This document shows positions 53,077 through 61,344 of a DNA stretch of 64,000 bases, piece after piece (within the stretch, counting starts at the first letter, position 1; every line of letters starts with the position of its first letter). A model generated the notes under the pieces. The model did not search any database and had not been told where the DNA came from. It was given only the letters and a program-made list of their open reading frames with translations. The stretch covers positions 4,164-68,163 of the forward strand of contig ONFA01000008.1 of assembly GCA_900316975.1 (NCBI GenBank). Reading direction: 5' to 3'. The translations under genes and the position numbers were made by a program. This DNA comes from an uncultured Prevotellaceae bacterium (GTDB taxonomy: Bacteria; Bacteroidota; Bacteroidia; Bacteroidales; Bacteroidaceae).

Positions 53077-53106
53077 CAATGTAAACAAACCAAATTGACA
53101 ATACGC

Positions 53107-53817
53107 ATGAGAATTTGTTATATAGTGGCAATGGTGGCAGAAGCCCAACCATTCATCGAGAGATACGGTATCAGGAAAGTGGAGGGATTTTTCGCCCCAC
53201 TCCCTTGCGAACTTTATGAGGGAGAAGTGAACAATGTCACGCTCAATGTGGTGCTGAACGGTCAGCAACAAGGCAGCGACCTCGTGGGATGCGAGGCTGC
53301 TGCAGTGGCAACCCTCAGTGCCATCCAACGATTGCATCCTGACATTGTGGTAAATTCAGGCACTTGCGGTGCCTTCCGCGAGAAGGGTGCCGACATTGCC
53401 GAAGTGTATATCGGCAACGGGGTGATGTTTCACGACCGCCGTGTGCCAGGCGATGACGCATGGGGTACACAGAGCCTTGGCAACTACCCTGTGTGGGAAG
53501 GAAGCCCAGCACTGGCAAAAGCATTGGAATTGAAAATGGGCAAGGTCACGACAGGCTCATCGTTGGACATGCAGCCCTGTGACCTTGAGATGATTCAAAA
53601 GCATGGCGGGGAACTCAAAGATATGGAAGGAGCCGCTGTGGGATTTGTCTGCTCCTTGTTCAAAACCCCCATTCTCTATGTCAAGTCTGTCACCGACCTC
53701 TGTGACAACGGTGCAGAAACTTTCGAAGAGTTCTCCCGCAATCTCCACAGAGCCTGCGACACCCTTCGCACCGCTAACGAAAAAGTGATTGACTACTTAG
53801 CAACAAACTTTCGTTAA
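53107..53817 (+). CDS. PNP_UDP_1-family nucleosidase (MTA/SAH nucleosidase-like)
   Basis: MRICYIVAMVAEAQPF, NSGTCGAF and DMEGAAV are typical of the nucleoside phosphorylase/nucleosidase fold. The TTG at 53074 lies inside the -7 box, so I prefer the ATG at 53107. Confidence 0.6.
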   Translation: MRICYIVAMVAEAQPFIERYGIRKVEGFFAPLPCELYEGEVNNVTLNVVLNGQQQGSDLVGCEAAAVATLSAIQRLHPDIVVNSGTCGAFREKGADIAEVYIGNGVMFHDRRVPGDDAWGTQSLGNYPVWEGSPALAKALELKMGKVTTGSSLDMQPCDLEMIQKHGGELKDMEGAAVGFVCSLFKTPILYVKSVTDLCDNGAETFEEFSRNLHRACDTLRTANEKVIDYLATNFR

Positions 53818-53846
53818 CGGAGTTTATACTCAACTTTCGGAAGTTA

Positions 53847-54027
53847 TTTTTTCAACAACGAATATTCCGAATGTGGCGAATCGTTTTTAATGGGCAAGCC
53901 CGACGAATGAAATCCTGCTAATTTCTCCGAATGAGGAACGCCCGCCATTCGTTTTCCTTCGTTGCCGTCCCGCGGCATTGAAAAGAAAATAGATTCGTTT
54001 CATTAGTTCTATTCGTTGTTGAAAAAA
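53847..54027. repeat. MITE-like element with perfect 18-bp terminal inverted repeats
   Basis: TTTTTTCAACAACGAATA (53847-53864) and TATTCGTTGTTGAAAAAA (54010-54027). The 145-bp interior is rich in cgaatg/cattcg motifs. It has no ORF and lies between convergent genes. Confidence 0.5.
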
Positions 54028-54161
54028 CTGCGAATCCGTGGTTTTATTACTGGCGAGTGTTTAAGACAGACACAAGGTTTTACAAGTGAGCCCTAAATTT
54101 ACTCCGTATTTACTTGATATTTACTTTCCGGGAAAGCGCCACCGGCGCAACTTCTCACCCC

Positions 54162-54189
54162 CAACTGTCAACTGTCAACTGTCAACTGA
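54162..54189. repeat. Four tandem heptads CAACTGT abutting a stop codon
   Basis: caactgt caactgt caactgt caactga lies immediately before the complement stop cta at 54190-54192. Confidence 0.85.
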
Positions 54190-55680
54190 CTAATCCTCGT
54201 TGGTATTCTCCTCTTCCAGAGAGTGGAACGAACTACCGTCAAAGCAGTGTGTACACACTTGGCACTTCTCAAGTCCTATCGCATTCACAATGGTTTCCAA
54301 CGAGGAGAACTTGAGGCTGTCGAGGTTGAGTCGATGGGCTATCTCTGCCACCATCGCCTTGTATTCGGGTGAATCGGTTGTGGCATATGCTTTGATGCGC
54401 TCAGCAGGCACCTCCACATTCTGTGCCGTCTGTGCATCCGCCAGCATGGTGGCTGTACGCGAATGCGTCTCGAGGTCTTTGATGACACGGCGTGTGATCA
54501 ACTCCAATTCCGACTTGCTGGCAGAGAAGTTCACGAACGGACAAGCATAAATCAGTGGAGGACAGGCAATACGCATGTGTACCTCCTTCGCTCCCAAATC
54601 TTTCAGCACCTTCGTGTTCTCTCTCAACTGTGTACCTCTCACGATGGAATCATCGCAGAAAAGACAACGCTTACCCTTCAGCATATCTTTGTTGGGAATG
54701 AGTTTCATTTTCGCCACGAGGTTGCGCACTTCCTGACTTGGTGGCATGAACGAGCGAGGCCATGTAGGCGTGTATTTGCTGATGCCACGCTGATAAGGGA
54801 TGTGACTGCCGGCACTGTAACCCACAGCCATGCCGATGCCCGAATCGGGGATGCCACCCACACAATCCACTTCCGTTTCGTCCGTTTCGCCCATCACGCG
54901 TCCCGTCTCGAAGCGTACCTCTTCCACGTTCTTTCCTTCATACGACGAGGTGGGGAACCCATAATATATCCAAAGGAAGGAACAAATCTGCATCTTCTTG
55001 TTGGGCTTGCGCAACTGCTCCATGCCATCGGCACGCAGACGCACAATCTCGCCTGGACCCACAAAGTATGTCGTTTCGTAACCCAAATTAGGGAATGCCG
55101 TGTTCTCGCTGGTAGCAGCCATCGCGCCCTCCTTCTTGCCAATGATGATAGGTGTACGTCCCCAAGCATCGCGGGCAGCAATGATGCCATCCTCCGTCAG
55201 CAACAACATGGAGCAGGAACCTTTCACAACCTTGAACACATTCTCAATACCTTCCACAAATGTCTTGCCCTGCACAATCAACACACCAATCAACTCCGTC
55301 GGATTGATCTTTCCTGACGAGAACTCAGACAGGTACATGTTCTCGTCCAAGAGTTTGGAGGCAATCTCCTCCATATTGTTGATTTTCGCCACCGTCACAA
55401 TCGCGAAACGCCCCAAGTGACTGTTGAACAGCATCGGTTGTGCATCGGTGTCACTGATGATACCAATGCCCGACTCGCCTTCAAACTTAGACAGTTCCGC
55501 CTCAAAACGTGTACGAAAATAAGTGCTCTCCAGATTATGGATGGCGCGGTAGAACCCCTTTTCCTTACTATACGAAGCCATACCTCCGCGTCGTGTACCG
55601 AGGTGTGACTGATAGTCTGTGCCATAGAAAAGGTCTGCCGCACATTTTTCCATTGATACGGTCCCAAAAAAACCTCCCAT
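54190..55680 (-). CDS. Amidophosphoribosyltransferase-like protein (PurF family) lacking the N-terminal Cys nucleophile
   Basis: PRPP motif CLFCDDSIVRGTQL. The N-terminus is MGGFFG where PurF has MCGI(V/F)G. LFYGTDYQSHLGTRRGG parallels YYGL..LQHRGQEG. Cys-rich tail CQVCTHCFDGSS. The TTG at 55710 lies in the -7 box. Confidence 0.8.
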   Translation of the reverse strand: MGGFFGTVSMEKCAADLFYGTDYQSHLGTRRGGMASYSKEKGFYRAIHNLESTYFRTRFEAELSKFEGESGIGIISDTDAQPMLFNSHLGRFAIVTVAKINNMEEIASKLLDENMYLSEFSSGKINPTELIGVLIVQGKTFVEGIENVFKVVKGSCSMLLLTEDGIIAARDAWGRTPIIIGKKEGAMAATSENTAFPNLGYETTYFVGPGEIVRLRADGMEQLRKPNKKMQICSFLWIYYGFPTSSYEGKNVEEVRFETGRVMGETDETEVDCVGGIPDSGIGMAVGYSAGSHIPYQRGISKYTPTWPRSFMPPSQEVRNLVAKMKLIPNKDMLKGKRCLFCDDSIVRGTQLRENTKVLKDLGAKEVHMRIACPPLIYACPFVNFSASKSELELITRRVIKDLETHSRTATMLADAQTAQNVEVPAERIKAYATTDSPEYKAMVAEIAHRLNLDSLKFSSLETIVNAIGLEKCQVCTHCFDGSSFHSLEEENTNED

Positions 55681-55707: not shown

Positions 55708-55840
55708 CAAAGGTACGAAAAAGTTTAGAGTTTAGTGTTTAGTGTTTAGTGATTTGTTACTATTTCCCATAAAAAAACGACTAAGATGACAAATAATTCC
55801 TCATTCCTAACTTCTCATTCCCAATTTTTCCGTATCTTCG
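55708..55840. promoter_or_regulatory. Bidirectional promoter cassette type C, copy 2
   Basis: Bounded by caaaggta and TATCTTCG. The interior is gtttaga gtttagt gtttagt gtttagt heptads followed by ...aataattcctcattcctaacttctcattcccaatttttccg. Confidence 0.75.
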
Positions 55841-55861: not shown

Positions 55862-56704
55862 ATGAGAAAAAGAGCAGATTATATCCAGAGCATAGAGATC
55901 AAGGCTCTGTGGAAAGGTGGCAGGCACATCATCTGGCACTTGCAACCTGACGTGAACATCCTCAGTGGCATCAACGGTGTGGGCAAAAGCACCATCATCA
56001 ACCATTCGGCACGCACGCTGGCGGAGATTGACCGCGACGAGATTGTGCCGAAAGAGGCTCCACAGGGGGTGACCATCAAACTGATGCCGGAAGATGCAAC
56101 TTACATCAAGTTTGACGTCATCCGCTCGTTTGACCGCCCTCTGCTGCACAGCGACTTGCTGGAGAAGCTGTCGGATTCGCGGGTGAAGACGGAACTGGAT
56201 TGGCAAATCTACCGTTTGCAAAAGAGGTTCCTCGACTATCAGGTGAACATCGGCAACCGTATCATCGAACTGCTGACCAGCGGAGACCCCGACGACCAGA
56301 TGAAGGCTGCGGAGGTGAGTGCGCCCAAAAAGCAGTTTCAGGACATGATTGACGAACTGTTTGCCGACACAAACAAGAAGATTGACAGGAAAAGCAACGA
56401 AATCCAGTTTGTGCAGACAAACGGTAACGGAACCACCGAGATGATTACACCCTATCAACTCTCCAGCGGTGAGAAGCAGATGCTTGCCATCCTGCTGACC
56501 GTACTGGTGGAGAACCGAGAACCGTATGCCTTGTTGATGGACGAACCCGAAATCTCGCTCCATATCGACTGGCAACAACGCCTCATCGACCTGATACGGC
56601 AACTCAACCCGAATGCCCAAATCATCCTCTCCACCCACTCCCCTGCCCTCATCATGGATGGATGGATGAGCAATGTGACGGAAGTGGGAGATATCAGTAA
56701 TTAA
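55862..56704 (+). CDS. Compact ABC-type (AAA_21/AAA_15-like) ATPase
   Basis: Walker A GINGVGKST. ABC signature LSSGEKQML. Walker B LLMDEPEISLH. H-loop STHSP. Only 280 aa, with an insert of about 100 aa between Walker A and the signature. Confidence 0.85.
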   Translation: MRKRADYIQSIEIKALWKGGRHIIWHLQPDVNILSGINGVGKSTIINHSARTLAEIDRDEIVPKEAPQGVTIKLMPEDATYIKFDVIRSFDRPLLHSDLLEKLSDSRVKTELDWQIYRLQKRFLDYQVNIGNRIIELLTSGDPDDQMKAAEVSAPKKQFQDMIDELFADTNKKIDRKSNEIQFVQTNGNGTTEMITPYQLSSGEKQMLAILLTVLVENREPYALLMDEPEISLHIDWQQRLIDLIRQLNPNAQIILSTHSPALIMDGWMSNVTEVGDISN

Positions 56705-56710
56705 GTGAAT

Positions 56711-56797
56711 AGTGAAAAGCGAAAAATCTAAGTTACTTTTGCAAATGAAAAGCCAACAAGCTGAATGGCAGGTTACTTGAATTTTTCACTTTTAACT
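56711..56797. repeat. Imperfect inverted repeat between the ATPase and DUF4435-like genes
   Basis: AGTGAAAAGCGAAAAATCTAAGTTAC (56711-56736) pairs with GTTACTTGAATTTTTCACTTTTAACT (56772-56797). It shares the gtgaaaaatctaagttac module with 1145-1165 and 46215-46280. Confidence 0.7.
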
Positions 56798-56807
56798 TCT
56801 ATGGCTT

Positions 56808-57818
56808 ATGGCACGTCATTTGCTTTCCAACATCAGTTCCGCCTATATCGAGGCTGCGAACCGTTTGCGACCCAAGACCCGCAAACGGAAGATTGTGGCG
56901 TATGTGGAATCGTATGACGACATCTTCTTCTGGCGGGACGTGCTGAGTGAGTTTGAGGACGAGAACACCGCGTTCGAGGTGATGCTGCCCAGCCGAACCA
57001 ACTTGAACCGTGGGAAGAAAACTGCATTGATGAACAAACTTGGAGAGTCTTTAGGAGGATACATGATTGCCTGCGTGGATGCCGACCTCGACTATCTCTT
57101 GCAGCGTCACACACCTTCCTCCCAAAGGATGCTTGACAACCCTTATGTGCTCCACACCTATGCTTACTCCATCGAAAGTTTCCAGTGCTATGCCCCCTCG
57201 CTGCACAATGTGTGTGTGATGGCAACCCTAAACGACCGCGACATCTTTAACTTTGAGGAATACCTGCGCCAGTACTCTGAAATCATTTATGAACTGTTTG
57301 TCTGGATGGTGTGGTTGCATCGACGTGGACGCTATAATGACTTTCCCCTCACGAACTTCAACAACATTGTGTCGGTGGAGCAACTCAATGTATTCAAGCC
57401 CATCGATGCACTTGAACGTGTGCGCAAGCAGGTGAACCGCAAATTGGCTTGGCTTCAGCAACACGTGAAAGATGCCAAGGGGAAACTCACCCCGTTGAAA
57501 CAGGAACTTGCCGAACTCGGGGTGAGAAAAGACAACACCTATCTCTTCATCCAAGGGCACCACCTGATGGAAAATGTGGTGGATGCCGCTCTGACCCCCG
57601 TGTGCACCATCCTTCGACGCGAACGGGAAAAAGACATCAAGATGCTGGCACGGGGCAACAGCCAGCAGATGAACAACGAACTCTCCTGCTATTCCCACAG
57701 CCAGTTCCAACCAGCCCAGATGCTACGTCGCAACACCCAATATAAGGATTGCGACGCCTATATTATGCTACGGAACCAAGTGGCTGATTTCTTGCAGAGA
57801 CAACAGAACAAGAACTAA
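56808..57818 (+). CDS. DUF4435/Toprim-like protein (AriB/OLD-nuclease-like)
   Basis: KIVAYVESYDDIFFW (Toprim-type Glu) and IACVDADLDYLL (DxD) have the order and spacing expected for DUF4435. 336 aa. Confidence 0.7.
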   Translation: MARHLLSNISSAYIEAANRLRPKTRKRKIVAYVESYDDIFFWRDVLSEFEDENTAFEVMLPSRTNLNRGKKTALMNKLGESLGGYMIACVDADLDYLLQRHTPSSQRMLDNPYVLHTYAYSIESFQCYAPSLHNVCVMATLNDRDIFNFEEYLRQYSEIIYELFVWMVWLHRRGRYNDFPLTNFNNIVSVEQLNVFKPIDALERVRKQVNRKLAWLQQHVKDAKGKLTPLKQELAELGVRKDNTYLFIQGHHLMENVVDAALTPVCTILRREREKDIKMLARGNSQQMNNELSCYSHSQFQPAQMLRRNTQYKDCDAYIMLRNQVADFLQRQQNKN

Positions 57819-59725
57819 GTACAGGGGATGTCGAAAATGAAACGTGCTCCTTCTGTGTAGGTGGAATCGAGCACAAGTGTGCCTCCCAACAAATGTGCAT
57901 ATTGTTGAGACAGTCCAAGTCCAAGTCCTAACCCTTCGCTGAAACTGTCAAGTTTGACGAAGGGAATAAACACATGGTCACGCTCCGCCTCGGTGATGCC
58001 CACACCTTTGTCCTCGATGACGAAGCGCAGGGTGGTGCTGTCCATCAATGTCAGCGTCATGCCCACTTCTTTGCCTGACGCGAACTTCTTCGCGTTGATG
58101 AGCAATTCTCTCAAGACTCTGTTGAGGTAGAGACGGTTGGTGTGTATCGTGAAGTGGTCGGGCAGGGTTGTCGTGAAGTTCAGAACCACGTCGTGCGGTG
58201 CTTTCTCTTCGAACGACTTGATGACGTTCTGCACCGCAGGAATGACCTCCACCTCCTTGGACAAATCGAGTTTCTGCCCGCCATCCATGCGGGACACATC
58301 GAAAATCATCGTGGACATACGCTGAATCGTGTCTGCGTTCTGCTTCATGGTCTCCGCAAAGTTCACCACTTCCTCTTTGGGCAGGAGGGTGAAGGTCTCG
58401 CGCAACACTTGCATGAAGCCTGCTATAATGTTGAGGGGTGTGCGTATCTGAAGGGACACGTCATGGATGAACGCGGCTTTCCGTCGGTCGGAATCTTCTA
58501 TGAGGGCGTTGGCGGTCTGCAGTTCGCTGTTGCGCCTTTCGGCCTCATCGTTCACCCGCTGTATGTCGCTGATGTTTGCATTGATGGACTGCTGCATCTG
58601 TACAAAACTGTTTTGCAGATGCCCTACCACATCGACGCGGTTGCTTGAAGGGAGGGGCTTGTGGTAGTGTCCGGCTGTGATGTGGCGTGACTGCTGTGCC
58701 AGTTGGTCGAGCGGACGGATGAAATGCTGGACTATTTTCCAACAAACTATAAGCATCAGCACCAAACCGATGACAAGCAGCGGGATGAGGATGTAGCCCA
58801 AACGGTTGTAGCCTGCAAAGATCTCACTTTCAGGACAGACGAGGGCGATGCTCCATGTGGTGCCTTTCAACGGCTGATAGAACACGATGCAAGGTTTCCC
58901 GTCCACATTGACACGCATGTTTCCAGTCTTTCCCGAGGTCATTTCGTGTCCCAACACAATGATGTCGTGATGTTTATGGGCATCAACGGATGAGAATATG
59001 CTCTCCTTCACCAATTTCAACCTGTCGGGGTGGACAAAATAGCGTCCGTCTGTGCCAAGCATCATGCAGTAAGAGTGAGGATACGGCTTTTCGGCAGTGA
59101 TGGCACGGGAAAGCCATTCGATGGAAAGGTCTGTGGAGATGACGCCAATGAAGTCGCCCTGCGGATTCTTCAAAGGCTTGCAATAAGATGCAATCATGAC
59201 GGGAGATGAGAGTGTCCCCTCATTGAAGTCGTTGAAGGGATCGACCCAACATGCCTCATTCCGCTCACGAGGAGTCTTGTACCACACCTTCTCATAATAG
59301 TTGTACTTTCCTTCGATGACGGTTTCTATCGTGTCGTGCCCCCTCAGAGAATAGACGGAAAAGGGGGTGCCGAACTGAGGGAAGAATGCGGGTTCCATGG
59401 TGATGGAGCATCCGTTGACATTGGGATTGAGTTCAACCACACGACGAGTGTAGTTGTAAAGGGAATCGGGCTGGAGATTTTTGATTGCCAACCATTCCAT
59501 GTTGTCGGTGGCTTTTTCCACTTCGTTAAGGTATCCCGTCACCCGCAAGGCGGTGTTCTCAAGCATGCGGGTGGCATGTTCCATCGCCTCCTGCTTCACG
59601 AGCTGCCGTGAGCGTTGGAAGAGGAAGCCGAGGCTGAGGACGAACACCATCACCACAAATAGCAAGATGCCTAAACTCAGTTTCAGCGACAACGAGCGGT
59701 TGATATGGAAGAATACGCTTTTCAT
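57815..59725 (-). CDS. Sensor histidine kinase (Cache-like periplasmic domain, HAMP, HisKA, HATPase_c)
   Basis: TM1 LGILLFVVMVFVLSLGFLF and TM2 ILIPLLVIGLVLMLIV. H-box AAFIHDVSLQIRTPLN. ATPase boxes EDKGVGI and GLGLGLGLS. Confidence 0.88.
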   Translation of the reverse strand: MKSVFFHINRSLSLKLSLGILLFVVMVFVLSLGFLFQRSRQLVKQEAMEHATRMLENTALRVTGYLNEVEKATDNMEWLAIKNLQPDSLYNYTRRVVELNPNVNGCSITMEPAFFPQFGTPFSVYSLRGHDTIETVIEGKYNYYEKVWYKTPRERNEACWVDPFNDFNEGTLSSPVMIASYCKPLKNPQGDFIGVISTDLSIEWLSRAITAEKPYPHSYCMMLGTDGRYFVHPDRLKLVKESIFSSVDAHKHHDIIVLGHEMTSGKTGNMRVNVDGKPCIVFYQPLKGTTWSIALVCPESEIFAGYNRLGYILIPLLVIGLVLMLIVCWKIVQHFIRPLDQLAQQSRHITAGHYHKPLPSSNRVDVVGHLQNSFVQMQQSINANISDIQRVNDEAERRNSELQTANALIEDSDRRKAAFIHDVSLQIRTPLNIIAGFMQVLRETFTLLPKEEVVNFAETMKQNADTIQRMSTMIFDVSRMDGGQKLDLSKEVEVIPAVQNVIKSFEEKAPHDVVLNFTTTLPDHFTIHTNRLYLNRVLRELLINAKKFASGKEVGMTLTLMDSTTLRFVIEDKGVGITEAERDHVFIPFVKLDSFSEGLGLGLGLSQQYAHLLGGTLVLDSTYTEGARFIFDIPCT

Positions 59726-61344
59726 GAGTTCGGTCTATTTTTTGTTTCGCTTTCTTCCCCTGCAATTCGGTCGAGTACAGACGAGGCCGTCTTGTCCTCG
59801 CCGTCCTTCCTGTTCTTCTTGGGGATGTCAAGCATCTGGTCTAACAAATCAGTGATAGTCTTCGTGTGGTTCATCACATCCTCCGACATGGACACGACAT
59901 CTTCCTTCTTCAATTCGGCATGACGTGCCGACAAGTCATCGACAATGGCCACGATACCTTTGATGGGCAGAATCATCTTGTCAGCAATCTTATGGATAAG
60001 ATTCATCTTTATGTTGTCAGCATCCTTCACCTCTTCATGGATAGCACCCAAAGTTTCATTTTGCTCCTTGAGGTTACGGGACAACTTCCTCATCTGCTGA
60101 ATGTGGCGATACAGAGATGTCTGCATGGCACCAAAACTGTTTTGCAACACACCTATCTCATCCGTCCTGTTCGTGGAGGGTATCGTGCCCGAATAGTTGC
60201 CTCGCGCAATGCGCTGTGCCGACTTTGCCAACATGTTGAGCGGAGCCAATTGGCGGCTGACGAAACAGAAGCAGAAGGACACAATCAACACGATGCCCAG
60301 CAGGATGATGACTGTCATGTAGGATTGCTGCCGGTGGCTGGCTTCGAAGATGTCGCTTTCAGGACAAACTATGCAGGCACTCCAATGCTTGTTGTTGAGC
60401 GATTTGAAAAGCACGTATGAGTCCTTGCCGAACAAACGGACAGAGCGGCATCCCGACTCGCCTGCCAGCATGGATTCCACAAGTTCCCCCACTCGCTCGT
60501 CGGGTTCCTGTCTGGCAACATCACGCAACATGCTATGGTAGAGTTTCGTGCTGTCAGGGTGGATGATGTAGGAACCCTGCACACCCAACATCATACAATA
60601 GGAATGGGGGAAAGGCTTCGAGTCAAGCACGACACGGGACAGCCATGCCACTGAAATGTCGGCAGCCATCACACCCACAATGCTCCCCTGCTTGTCATGG
60701 ATGGGCATGCAGCAAGACACCACAGTGGAGTTGACGGTGTCATTTGGCGCATGTGGCCGCACCCAGCAAGTCAAGTTCTCCTGCTTGGGTATATTGTACC
60801 AATTGACCTGCCAATAAGGCACATCGCTAAACATGTCCGGCTCAATCACCAATGGGTCATGAGTAAGCATGATTTCATCCTTGTCTTCCTCCATGCGGTA
60901 GGTGTACGTGATATAGGACTCACCCTTCTCCTTGTAGTAGCCTGGCTCAAAAGCAATGGCACACCCCATGATGTCGGGATTGCTCTCCAGCATCTTCACG
61001 CTATACGTCACCATCGCATCGGGATTGTCCAGATGCTGCTCTACATTCCAAAGCATGTTTCTCGTCGCCACTTCCACTTTGTGCAACTGATTGTCAATTT
61101 GCAGCACCTTACCATCAAGCATCTGCTGTGTCTTTGCCAATGATTCCTGTTCAATTGCATGGTGGGAGTATCGGAACATAATGACAAGGGCAGCCACAAA
61201 CAAGATGGTCACCGACATCAATACCCATAAGCTGATTCGTGCAGAGAGTGTTTTACGAAAATATTGAACTATTTTAATCAAAGGCTTCTTTCTGTTATAA
61301 TACAACAAGAATTTCTTATTCCTGTTTTGAGCGCAAATATACAA
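59722..61344 (-). CDS. Paralogous Cache-HAMP-DHp sensor lacking the ATPase domain
   Basis: Same architecture as the downstream kinase up to the DHp (MNLIHKIADKMILPIKGI), then a short acidic tail. Stop/start ATGA overlap at 59722-59725. The TTG at 61344 sits in a TATATTTG box, so the TTG at 61281 (IKIVQYFRKTLSARISL) aligns better with the paralog N-terminus. Confidence 0.75.
   Translation of the reverse strand: MYICAQNRNKKFLLYYNRKKPLIKIVQYFRKTLSARISLWVLMSVTILFVAALVIMFRYSHHAIEQESLAKTQQMLDGKVLQIDNQLHKVEVATRNMLWNVEQHLDNPDAMVTYSVKMLESNPDIMGCAIAFEPGYYKEKGESYITYTYRMEEDKDEIMLTHDPLVIEPDMFSDVPYWQVNWYNIPKQENLTCWVRPHAPNDTVNSTVVSCCMPIHDKQGSIVGVMAADISVAWLSRVVLDSKPFPHSYCMMLGVQGSYIIHPDSTKLYHSMLRDVARQEPDERVGELVESMLAGESGCRSVRLFGKDSYVLFKSLNNKHWSACIVCPESDIFEASHRQQSYMTVIILLGIVLIVSFCFCFVSRQLAPLNMLAKSAQRIARGNYSGTIPSTNRTDEIGVLQNSFGAMQTSLYRHIQQMRKLSRNLKEQNETLGAIHEEVKDADNIKMNLIHKIADKMILPIKGIVAIVDDLSARHAELKKEDVVSMSEDVMNHTKTITDLLDQMLDIPKKNRKDGEDKTASSVLDRIAGEESETKNRPNS

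Follow-up and report, generated by a model that had tools for sequence, protein, structure and literature searches.

A gene pair of the PARIS family

We analyzed a 64,000-nucleotide stretch of DNA from an uncultured Prevotellaceae bacterium (assembly GCA_900316975.1, contig ONFA01000008.1, positions 4,164 to 68,163 of the forward strand), here called the window and numbered from its first letter. Two co-oriented genes with 103 nt between them encode a short AriA-type ATP-binding cassette (ABC) ATPase of 280 amino acids (aa) (protein 1; 55862-56704, + strand) and an AriB-type DUF4435/Toprim nuclease of 336 aa (protein 2; 56808-57818, + strand). A sequence-only reading of the same DNA had placed both open reading frames (ORFs) at these positions, and every motif it quoted was verified. 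The first assignment draws on Pfam, PADLOC, a Protein Data Bank (PDB) sequence match and hhalign, and the second on Pfam, PADLOC, an AlphaFold2 (AF2) model and Foldseek. As judged from these comparisons, the pair belongs to PARIS (AriA/AriB), the OLD-like class 4 family that couples an ABC ATPase to a DUF4435/Toprim protein. The kind of system is known, and its short-ATPase variant is already captured by existing hidden Markov models (HMMs).

The published detection rule for PARIS requires adjacent genes, one scoring at least 32 bits to AAA_15 or at least 27 bits to AAA_21 and the other at least 27 bits to DUF4435 (Rousset 2022, PMC9122126). The pair passes this rule with 64.6 bits for AAA_15, 73.5 bits for AAA_21 and 168.3 bits for DUF4435, and it also matches the curated PADLOC models of AriA and AriB. 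A PARIS-type pairing of ATPase and DUF4435 protein had been proposed from the sequence alone. Pfam, PADLOC and hhalign agree with that proposal, the domain matches lying far outside chance, and profile searches matched AAA_21, AAA_15, DUF4435, AriA and AriB, including the DUF4435 match of the second protein (3.1e-49) on which the proposal depended.

The ATPase and its motifs

Walker A, signature, Walker B, D-loop and H-loop are all present in the ATPase and at least 90% conserved in an alignment of 83 diverse members of the short family. Walker A reads GINGVGKST (G36-T44; 55967-55993, +), and its residues G36, N38, G39, G41, K42, S43 and T44 reach that level and are invariant in a further alignment (A1). 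The ABC signature LSSGE (L200-E204; 56459-56473, +), with which the string LSSGEKQML begins at residue 200, aligns with AriA 366-370; L200, S201, G203 and E204 are the residues conserved in at least 90% of the members. Walker B and the D-loop lie in LLMDEPEISLH (residues 224-234) and run into the AriB-docking segment, the whole forming DEPEISLHIDWQ (D227-Q238; 56540-56575, +). In the alignment to the AriA chain 8ux9_B, all 12 residues of this segment are the same as in Escherichia coli AriA, and D236 corresponds to AriA D401. The H-loop histidine, within STHSP, is H259 (56636-56638, +). By its motifs, protein 1 is an ABC ATPase with a complete and conserved catalytic set.

In Pfam the ATPase matches AAA_21 (4e-20) and AAA_15 (2e-17), and in PADLOC it matches the AriA model PDLC04164 at 1.3e-56 over model positions 4-250 of 253. 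Weaker and partial PADLOC matches to its C-terminal half are PtuA (3.7e-24), mad3 (2e-18) and AbiLi (4.8e-13). NCBIfam gave no match over its cutoffs for the pair. The top PDB sequence match of the ATPase is AriA 8ux9_B (464 aa), in an alignment limited to the Walker A region and to ATPase residues 199-265 (AriA 365-430). A comparison of family profiles reaches further: when the 83-sequence alignment was compared by hhalign with a canonical 460-aa AriA from Pseudoalteromonas, the two were matched with a probability of 99.8% (E 4.7e-28) over query residues 3-279 and AriA residues 1-445.

What the short ATPase lacks

That the ATPase is far shorter than AriA, as the sequence-only reading had noted, is borne out by the alignment to 8ux9_B and by hhalign. 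It is about 170 aa shorter (280 versus 464 aa), and its residues 51-198 (148 aa) correspond to AriA 48-364 (317 aa). Dropping all of the AriA insertions IS1 (122-180) and IS2 (242-289) would explain only 107 of the approximately 170 absent residues, with about 62 aa still in surplus. In hhalign, a gap of about 115 residues after query residue 75 corresponds to canonical residues ~78-191, IS1 included.

In the AF2 model, a predicted two-helix hairpin (residues 111-166; 56192-56359, +) takes the place of the coiled-coil four-helix bundle of AriA. Its helices (111-139 and 143-166) have block-mean pLDDT (predicted local distance difference test) values of 71-83, within a model whose overall pLDDT is only 54, and hhalign sets the hairpin region opposite canonical AriA ~240-330 with low alignment confidence. 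The low overall value is due to a shallow input alignment (30 sequences, 88-100% identical). Of the ATPase model, only the 111-166 helices were therefore used, with caution. An earlier estimate of a helical insert of about 100 aa holds as to the helical element and fails as to its size, the predicted hairpin in this low-confidence model being about 56 aa.

In the characterized system, AriB docks at the head-head interface of AriA, where AriA D401 and E404 build the contact with AriB R28 and R31, and the Walker B glutamate is E393; the coiled-coil interface of AriA serves hexamer formation and Ocr binding, and IS1 is predicted to recognize the trigger (PMC11464382, PMC10802264). Of the docking contacts on the ATPase side, D401 is kept in the window protein as D236 and E404 is replaced by Q239. 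The insertions associated with the A6B3 propeller and with Ocr binding (IS1, IS2 and the four-helix bundle) are not matched in the short ATPase. The alignments thus describe a short form that appears to retain the AriB-docking side and to be without the side used for sensing and hexamerization.

The nuclease

Protein 2 covers positions 1-237 of the 238-position Pfam DUF4435 profile, and in PADLOC it matches AriB models PDLC02983 (6.8e-59) and PDLC04165 (1.1e-35). AriB models were its only matches in PADLOC and DUF4435 its only match in Pfam, and neither database gave a match to RloB, HNH, Toprim_OLD or GajA.

The sequence-only reading had taken the strings VESYDD..FFW and CVDADLD for the Toprim glutamate and the DxD motif of DUF4435. 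The Pfam match supports this, as does conservation in an alignment of 46 sequences (A2). The first string is located at E34-W42 and contains the Toprim Glu motif E34-S-Y-D-D38 (56907-56921, +), in which E34 and D38 are invariant and correspond to AriB E26 and D30. The second lies at C89-D95 and contains the DxD motif D91-A-D93-L-D95 (57078-57092, +). Here D91 and D95 never vary, D93 is kept in at least 90% of the sequences, and D91 and D93 correspond to AriB D88 and E90. A fifth acidic metal-site residue, the invariant E123 (57174-57176, +), corresponds to AriB E122. The spacing of E34, D38, D91, D93 and E123, four of them invariant and one at least 90% conserved, is the same as that of the AriB metal-site residues E26, D30, D88, E90 and E122 (PMC11464382, PMC10802264). 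By profile match and residue conservation, protein 2 is a DUF4435 Toprim nuclease in which the five metal-binding acidic residues are conserved.

The AF2 model of protein 2 has a pLDDT of 82.3 and a predicted template modeling score (pTM) of 0.81. In a Foldseek search of the PDB, chain 8ux9_A came first and was the sole match with a probability of 1.00; from its length of 306 residues we take it to be the AriB of PARIS.

Comparison with known systems

PARIS of E. coli B185 (P4 satellite; 8UX9, 8V45-8V49) resembles the window pair in the co-oriented order of ABC ATPase and DUF4435 Toprim gene, in the presence of all ABC motifs with an identical 12-residue DEPEISLHIDWQ, in the equal spacing of the five acidic Toprim residues, and in fold, where its solved AriB (8ux9_A, as taken above) ranks first, if loosely, among the PDB matches of protein 2. 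It differs in that the window ATPase has 280 instead of 464 aa, is without IS1 and has a predicted hairpin in place of the four-helix coiled-coil/IS2 bundle, and in that AriB R28/R31 are not conserved in protein 2, at about 9% identity. In addition, the window pair lies amid housekeeping chromosomal genes and is vertically inherited, whereas that of B185 lies in a satellite hotspot.

The ATPases of the experimentally tested systems measure about 490 aa (PARIS-1) and about 464 aa (PARIS-2), and that of a P2-hotspot example about 395 aa (PMC9122126). This last pair, PARIS #149 (Rousset et al. 2022), is like the window pair in having an AAA_21 ATPase shorter than the AriA of B185 and a DUF4435 partner of about 283 aa with similar motifs (FVFEGVDD, FFVDHDFD). 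Unlike the window pair, it is phage-borne, stands beside a Y1 transposase in some genomes, and has an ATPase about 115 aa longer. It is outside the two systems (B185 and O42) for which defense tests were described (PMC9122126).

Both window proteins match the short-form models PDLC04164 and PDLC04165 of PADLOC-DB v2 without architectural difference; these are database models for which no experimental characterization was found in the literature. Over the 253 positions of PDLC04164, the window ATPase and a homolog from Bacteroides finegoldii match at full length, while a canonical 460-aa AriA covers merely positions 105-238. An exhaustive search of 50%-identity representatives placed 290 clusters in the short ATPase family at E<=1e-30. 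Among the best 150 of these 290, most members have 250-360 aa and none is near 460 aa. A set of 82 near-full-length representatives mostly have 300-350 aa, with an insertion after residue 75, so the 280-aa form of the window stands at the short end of its family. The sequence-only reading had spoken of a possible uncharacterized minimal variant. As to shortness, and to the absence of a tested short form, this stands; as to novelty for the databases it does not, given the fit of PDLC04164. DefenseFinder reports PARIS in Bacteroides fragilis NCTC 9343 (PMC13139388), a system that may be of the short-ATPase subtype.

The OLD and Gabija GajA nucleases (classes 1 and 2) likewise combine an AAA_15/21 ABC ATPase with a two-metal Toprim nuclease. 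In contrast to the two genes and the DUF4435 domain of the window, they have ATPase and Toprim fused, belong to Toprim_OLD and target DNA. An OLD C-terminal region is among the weak Foldseek matches of protein 2 (rank 6); the top PADLOC matches of the pair include neither GajA nor OLD models.

Operon structure and expression signals

The consensus of the Bacteroidetes -7 promoter element is TAnnTTTG. A promoter-like TATCTTCG (55833-55840, +), one mismatch from this consensus, lies about 29 nt upstream of the ATPase start, and the exact element precedes the ATPase start by 27-35 nt in 20 of 33 sequences, which comprise 32 related loci besides the window. Among relatives the gap between the two genes ranges from -23 to +188 nt, with overlap or a distance of at most 5 nt in 13 loci, and the 103-nt spacer of the window (56705-56807, +) is lineage-specific. 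This spacer contains an exact TAnnTTTG, TACTTTTG, at 56734-56741, and a separate promoter for the nuclease gene is therefore possible in the window lineage. The same TACTTTTG was also seen in two related loci, L001 and L038.

Conservation and genomic context

An ATPase of 99% identity was found on 680 contigs, with the gene order of the window in all eight contexts examined. In another species, with 90% identity in the ATPase, the block of PNP, PurF-like, ATPase, DUF4435, ASD1 and TyrRS genes is retained and the kinase genes that follow the pair in the window are replaced by GH8. The presence of the pair was scanned more widely by searching 80 species-level genomes for the PurF-like neighbor and scoring each for the pair. 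Eleven loci were uninformative because the flank was too short. Of the 31 informative genomes, 25 have the pair at most 10 kb from the PurF-like gene, all with a PurF identity of at least 83%; at a PurF identity of 80% or less, it was near PurF in 0 of 38 loci.

In the remaining six loci, with at least 7.8 kb of upstream sequence, the pair is absent near PurF. These are rearranged housekeeping regions (PurD, Rpe, ComEC, Cob_adeno_trans), and we rejected them as clean empty sites since they are not clean excisions. They indicate that the position is not universal and do not imply that the pair was lost from those genomes. An exact-sequence look-up of the PurF-like neighbor for strain-level presence or absence returned no record. 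The sequence-only reading had taken a pair strictly core and syntenic in all relatives as a sign against its defense proposal; that state is nearly, and not fully, reached here.

More distant homologs (63-78% identity) lie in other ordinary contexts, namely ArgRS/RNase H and Cob_adeno_trans with AraC/AsnC/fumarate reductase, the latter arrangement being common to two diverged lineages. In B. finegoldii the context is MeaB/DMT/MscS. Across eight distinct contexts, the ATPase and nuclease genes were always adjacent and never apart, and their neighbors were housekeeping or glycan-utilization genes. The phage or satellite hotspot or defense-island location that is a typical, non-defining trait of PARIS was not found. 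A functional link of the pair to the PurF-like and PNP_UDP_1 neighbors was considered and rejected, as the pair has wholly different neighbors in other lineages; nucleosidase and phosphoribosyltransferase (PRTase)-like effectors do occur in defense systems. In one close relative (L029, 4524-8309) a 1261-aa leucine-rich repeat (LRR)/DUF285 surface-type protein is encoded between the PurF-like gene and the pair, and in another (L023) a porin-like gene occupies the same slot, so the PurF-ATPase intergenic region tolerates insertions.

Both genes are under purifying selection. Compared with L027, the closest other species, both window genes show a synonymous divergence (dS) of 0.48 and the flanks one of 0.50-0.67, and the ratio of nonsynonymous to synonymous divergence (dN/dS) is 0.013 for the ATPase, 0.054 for the nuclease, 0.030 for the PurF-like gene and 0.055 for PNP. 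Over the computable loci, dN/dS ranges from 0.013 to 0.07 for the ATPase, 0.03 to 0.12 for the nuclease and 0.015 to 0.05 for the PurF-like gene, and against the more distant L015 it is 0.14 for the ATPase and 0.13 for the nuclease. The pair forms a self-contained operon of two genes, vertically inherited and resident in the chromosome of an uncultured Bacteroidales lineage of gut or rumen, and it is strongly constrained and atypical in its evolution.

Viral and plasmid records

Scans of viral contigs, phage genomes, BFVD and PHROGs gave one distant pair, at 27% identity (L110, 4928-7002; IMGVR_UViG_2700989454_000001), and otherwise no match for protein 2. On this 12.8-kb predicted viral contig, the gene of a 356-aa ATPase overlaps that of a 335-aa DUF4435 protein. 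We count this mobile relative in favor of a PARIS-type defense function. The viral pair lies downstream of a 450-aa secretin-like ORF, and the contig suggests a filamentous-phage-like or secretion-associated element.

Two PLSDB records encode the short pair: NZ_OY725943.1 (L107; B. finegoldii 'plasmid 41') and OY726067.1 (L109; Phocaeicola massiliensis 'plasmid 93'), with 47-51% identity in the DUF4435 protein and 57-65% in the ATPase. We rejected these records as evidence of mobility because the genes they carry (MeaB, TonB receptor, alpha-2-macroglobulin) are of chromosomal type. Both are probably mislabeled contigs.

Possible function and alternative explanations

The reading that we consider most likely, with a probability of roughly 0.6, is that of a resident PARIS-type sequester-and-release nuclease module. 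If it works like the E. coli system, a head-to-head dimer of the ATPase would keep the nuclease inactive over the ATP sites until a trigger, along with ATP hydrolysis, set it free. The freed nuclease would dimerize and cut an essential RNA (tRNA in E. coli), and this cutting would halt translation and phage growth. What the data show directly is homology, intact active sites, purifying selection and an operon structure; complex formation, trigger, substrate and anti-phage effect are what we infer by this analogy. For the short form, a simpler complex based on A2, with a different trigger surface, would be expected. An A6B3 propeller and Ocr-type coiled-coil sensing seem unlikely, since IS1 is missing and the bundle is reduced to a predicted hairpin.

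Several observations weigh against this reading. The structural match of protein 2 to 8ux9_A is loose (E 8e-3, template modeling (TM) scores 0.40/0.44, root-mean-square deviation 9.1 A over 368 columns, ~9% identity), no AriB match was obtained for protein 2 against PDB sequences in single-sequence and family-profile searches, and hhalign of alignment A2 with one canonical AriB gave a probability of 0.1%. In the absence of such a sequence-level match, the link of protein 2 to AriB rests on the Pfam and PADLOC profiles, residue spacing and Foldseek. The equivalents of AriB R28 and R31 are Y36 and I39, so these arginines are not conserved. The low quality of the ATPase model leaves the hairpin and the oligomeric state deduced from it weakly supported. 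No experimental work on a short-ATPase (~280 aa) PARIS pair was found in the literature, and no close copies of the pair were found in viral contigs, phage genomes, BFVD or PHROGs. The remaining points concern inheritance. Synteny is conserved, unlike that of typical defense systems, and no integrase, transposase or other defense gene was found in the eight contexts. The identity of the pair tracks that of PurF (Spearman coefficients over n=26: ATPase 0.69, nuclease 0.83), and some lineages conserve the ATPase better than the PurF-like protein. Near-core synteny, co-divergence and housekeeping-like dN/dS weaken the assumption of a typical mobile defense island, and with that assumption weakened, a defense function is one that we infer from homology.

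These points on inheritance also feed the main rival, which we hold to be doubtful. It sees in the pair a housekeeping module domesticated from a PARIS-like ancestor and serving RNA maturation or quality control, or nucleic-acid repair, and not phage defense. The place of the pair near the PurF-like gene (at most 10 kb away) in 25 of the 31 informative genomes argues for domestication, as does the second conserved position, Cob_adeno_trans with AraC/AsnC/fumarate reductase, in two diverged lineages. The pair is nevertheless missing near PurF in six of the 31 close genomes and lies elsewhere in distant ones, and it is therefore not demonstrably universal. A dS equal to that of the flanks, dN/dS values as low as or below those of PurF-like, PNP and ASD1, a divergence correlated with that of PurF, and an identity of 90% for the ATPase against 84% for the PurF-like protein and 72% for ASD1 in one species pair would all suit a housekeeping gene, but a defense system could also be retained vertically in the long term. 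The lack of mobile or defense neighbors in the eight contexts has to be set against a related pair on a predicted viral contig, and the absence of the trigger-sensing IS1 and of the coiled-coil bundle against the fact that all characterized relatives are defense systems.

A vertically inherited counterpart of the kind that this rival envisages is known. RNase M5 is a Toprim ribonuclease that matures 5S rRNA. Like the window pair it is chromosomal and vertically inherited, and unlike it, it has no partner ATPase. Published studies of AriB took it as an outgroup and structural relative. RNase M5 is not among the top 50 PDB fold matches of protein 2, and no link of the pair to rRNA, tRNA or repair genes was seen at this locus. 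A more specific version, in which a PARIS-derived pair was domesticated in a large clade of Bacteroidales, lost its sensing parts, became core-like and now carries out endogenous regulated RNA processing or turnover, strikes us as unlikely.

The pair would be an addictive element of the toxin-antitoxin (TA) type if loss of the ATPase freed a toxic nuclease and the genes thereby persisted without benefit to the host. PDB entries 8V45-8V49 do label AriA an 'antitoxin', a study of B. fragilis counts PARIS among TA systems (PMC13139388), and the two genes were never found apart in the contexts examined. In E. coli PARIS, either gene can be deleted without toxicity, and the study that found this ruled out a TA mechanism (PMC9122126), and AriB alone is just mildly toxic (PMC11464382, PMC10802264). 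Such an element would also leave unexplained the purifying selection on the nuclease active site across species-level divergence, and we consider it quite improbable.

It is hardly credible that another ABC-ATPase system, such as AbiL (AbiLi/AbiLii), Septu (PtuA/PtuB), MADS (mad3) or a split OLD/Gabija, all of which share an AAA_15/AAA_21 ATPase, has been mislabeled as PARIS, for the C-terminal matches to PtuA, mad3 and AbiLi are at least 30 orders of magnitude weaker than the full-length match to AriA, protein 2 matches AriB models and DUF4435 only, with no AbiLii/RloB match and no HNH protein adjacent, and no third gene is conserved with the pair.

Should the resident PARIS-type module be active in defense, it would reduce the PARIS machinery to a minimum, an ABC head dimer sequestering a Toprim RNase without propeller or Ocr-binding bundle. 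Infection would then also have to be sensed in a different way, in Bacteroidales that abound in gut and rumen and whose phages (e.g., crAss-like) are poorly understood. Should the pair instead be domesticated, it would illustrate clearly how an immune module can turn to housekeeping, and HMM-based counts of 'PARIS' in Bacteroidota may overstate the defense repertoire. The practical significance is modest in that standard tools already label the pair and its sequence hints at no new chemistry.

Neighboring genes and minor features

The sequence-only reading had described the pair as lying between a PurF-like gene and sensor kinases with no mobile genes near, and domain annotation agrees. Upstream are a GH3 gene, a PNP_UDP_1 protein and a divergently transcribed PurF-like gene, whose product scores 194 bits against TIGR01134 (cutoff 350). 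The PNP_UDP_1 neighbor scores below the MTA/SAH nucleosidase cutoffs. Both (53104-55677) are divergent, paralog-like enzymes; their genes remain adjacent in more than 20 species-level genomes. Downstream are a dCache-HAMP-HisKA-HATPase kinase, a Cache-HAMP protein and an arabinofuranosidase. No mobile genes were found in the part of the window that runs from GH43 to the arabinofuranosidase gene, nor out to tyrS in near-identical contigs (annotated over about ±8 kb), and there are no tRNA genes within the 64-kb window. The GC content of the pair (0.49-0.53) is like that of the flanking sequence.

The kinase gene (57815-59725) and the Cache-HAMP gene (59722-61344) overlap by 4 nt and form a lineage-specific insert, a GH8 gene filling the equivalent slot, between the DUF4435 and arabinofuranosidase genes, in a related species (L009-L014). 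The nuclease gene ends in AAC TAA, with its stop at 57816-57818; CTA at 57815-57817, read in reverse complement, gives the stop of the kinase gene. The two convergent stops thus share the four nucleotides CTAA (57815-57818), an overlap that had been noted before and was verified in the sequence. It is incidental and without functional meaning, because the kinase genes are lineage-specific and GH8 stands in their place in a related species. The accompanying remark that there is no terminator carries no weight, with two terminator-like matches found and 3.0 expected by chance. About five copies of the heptamer GTTTAG(A/T) stand in tandem at positions 55723-55757, between the divergently oriented PurF-like and ATPase genes.

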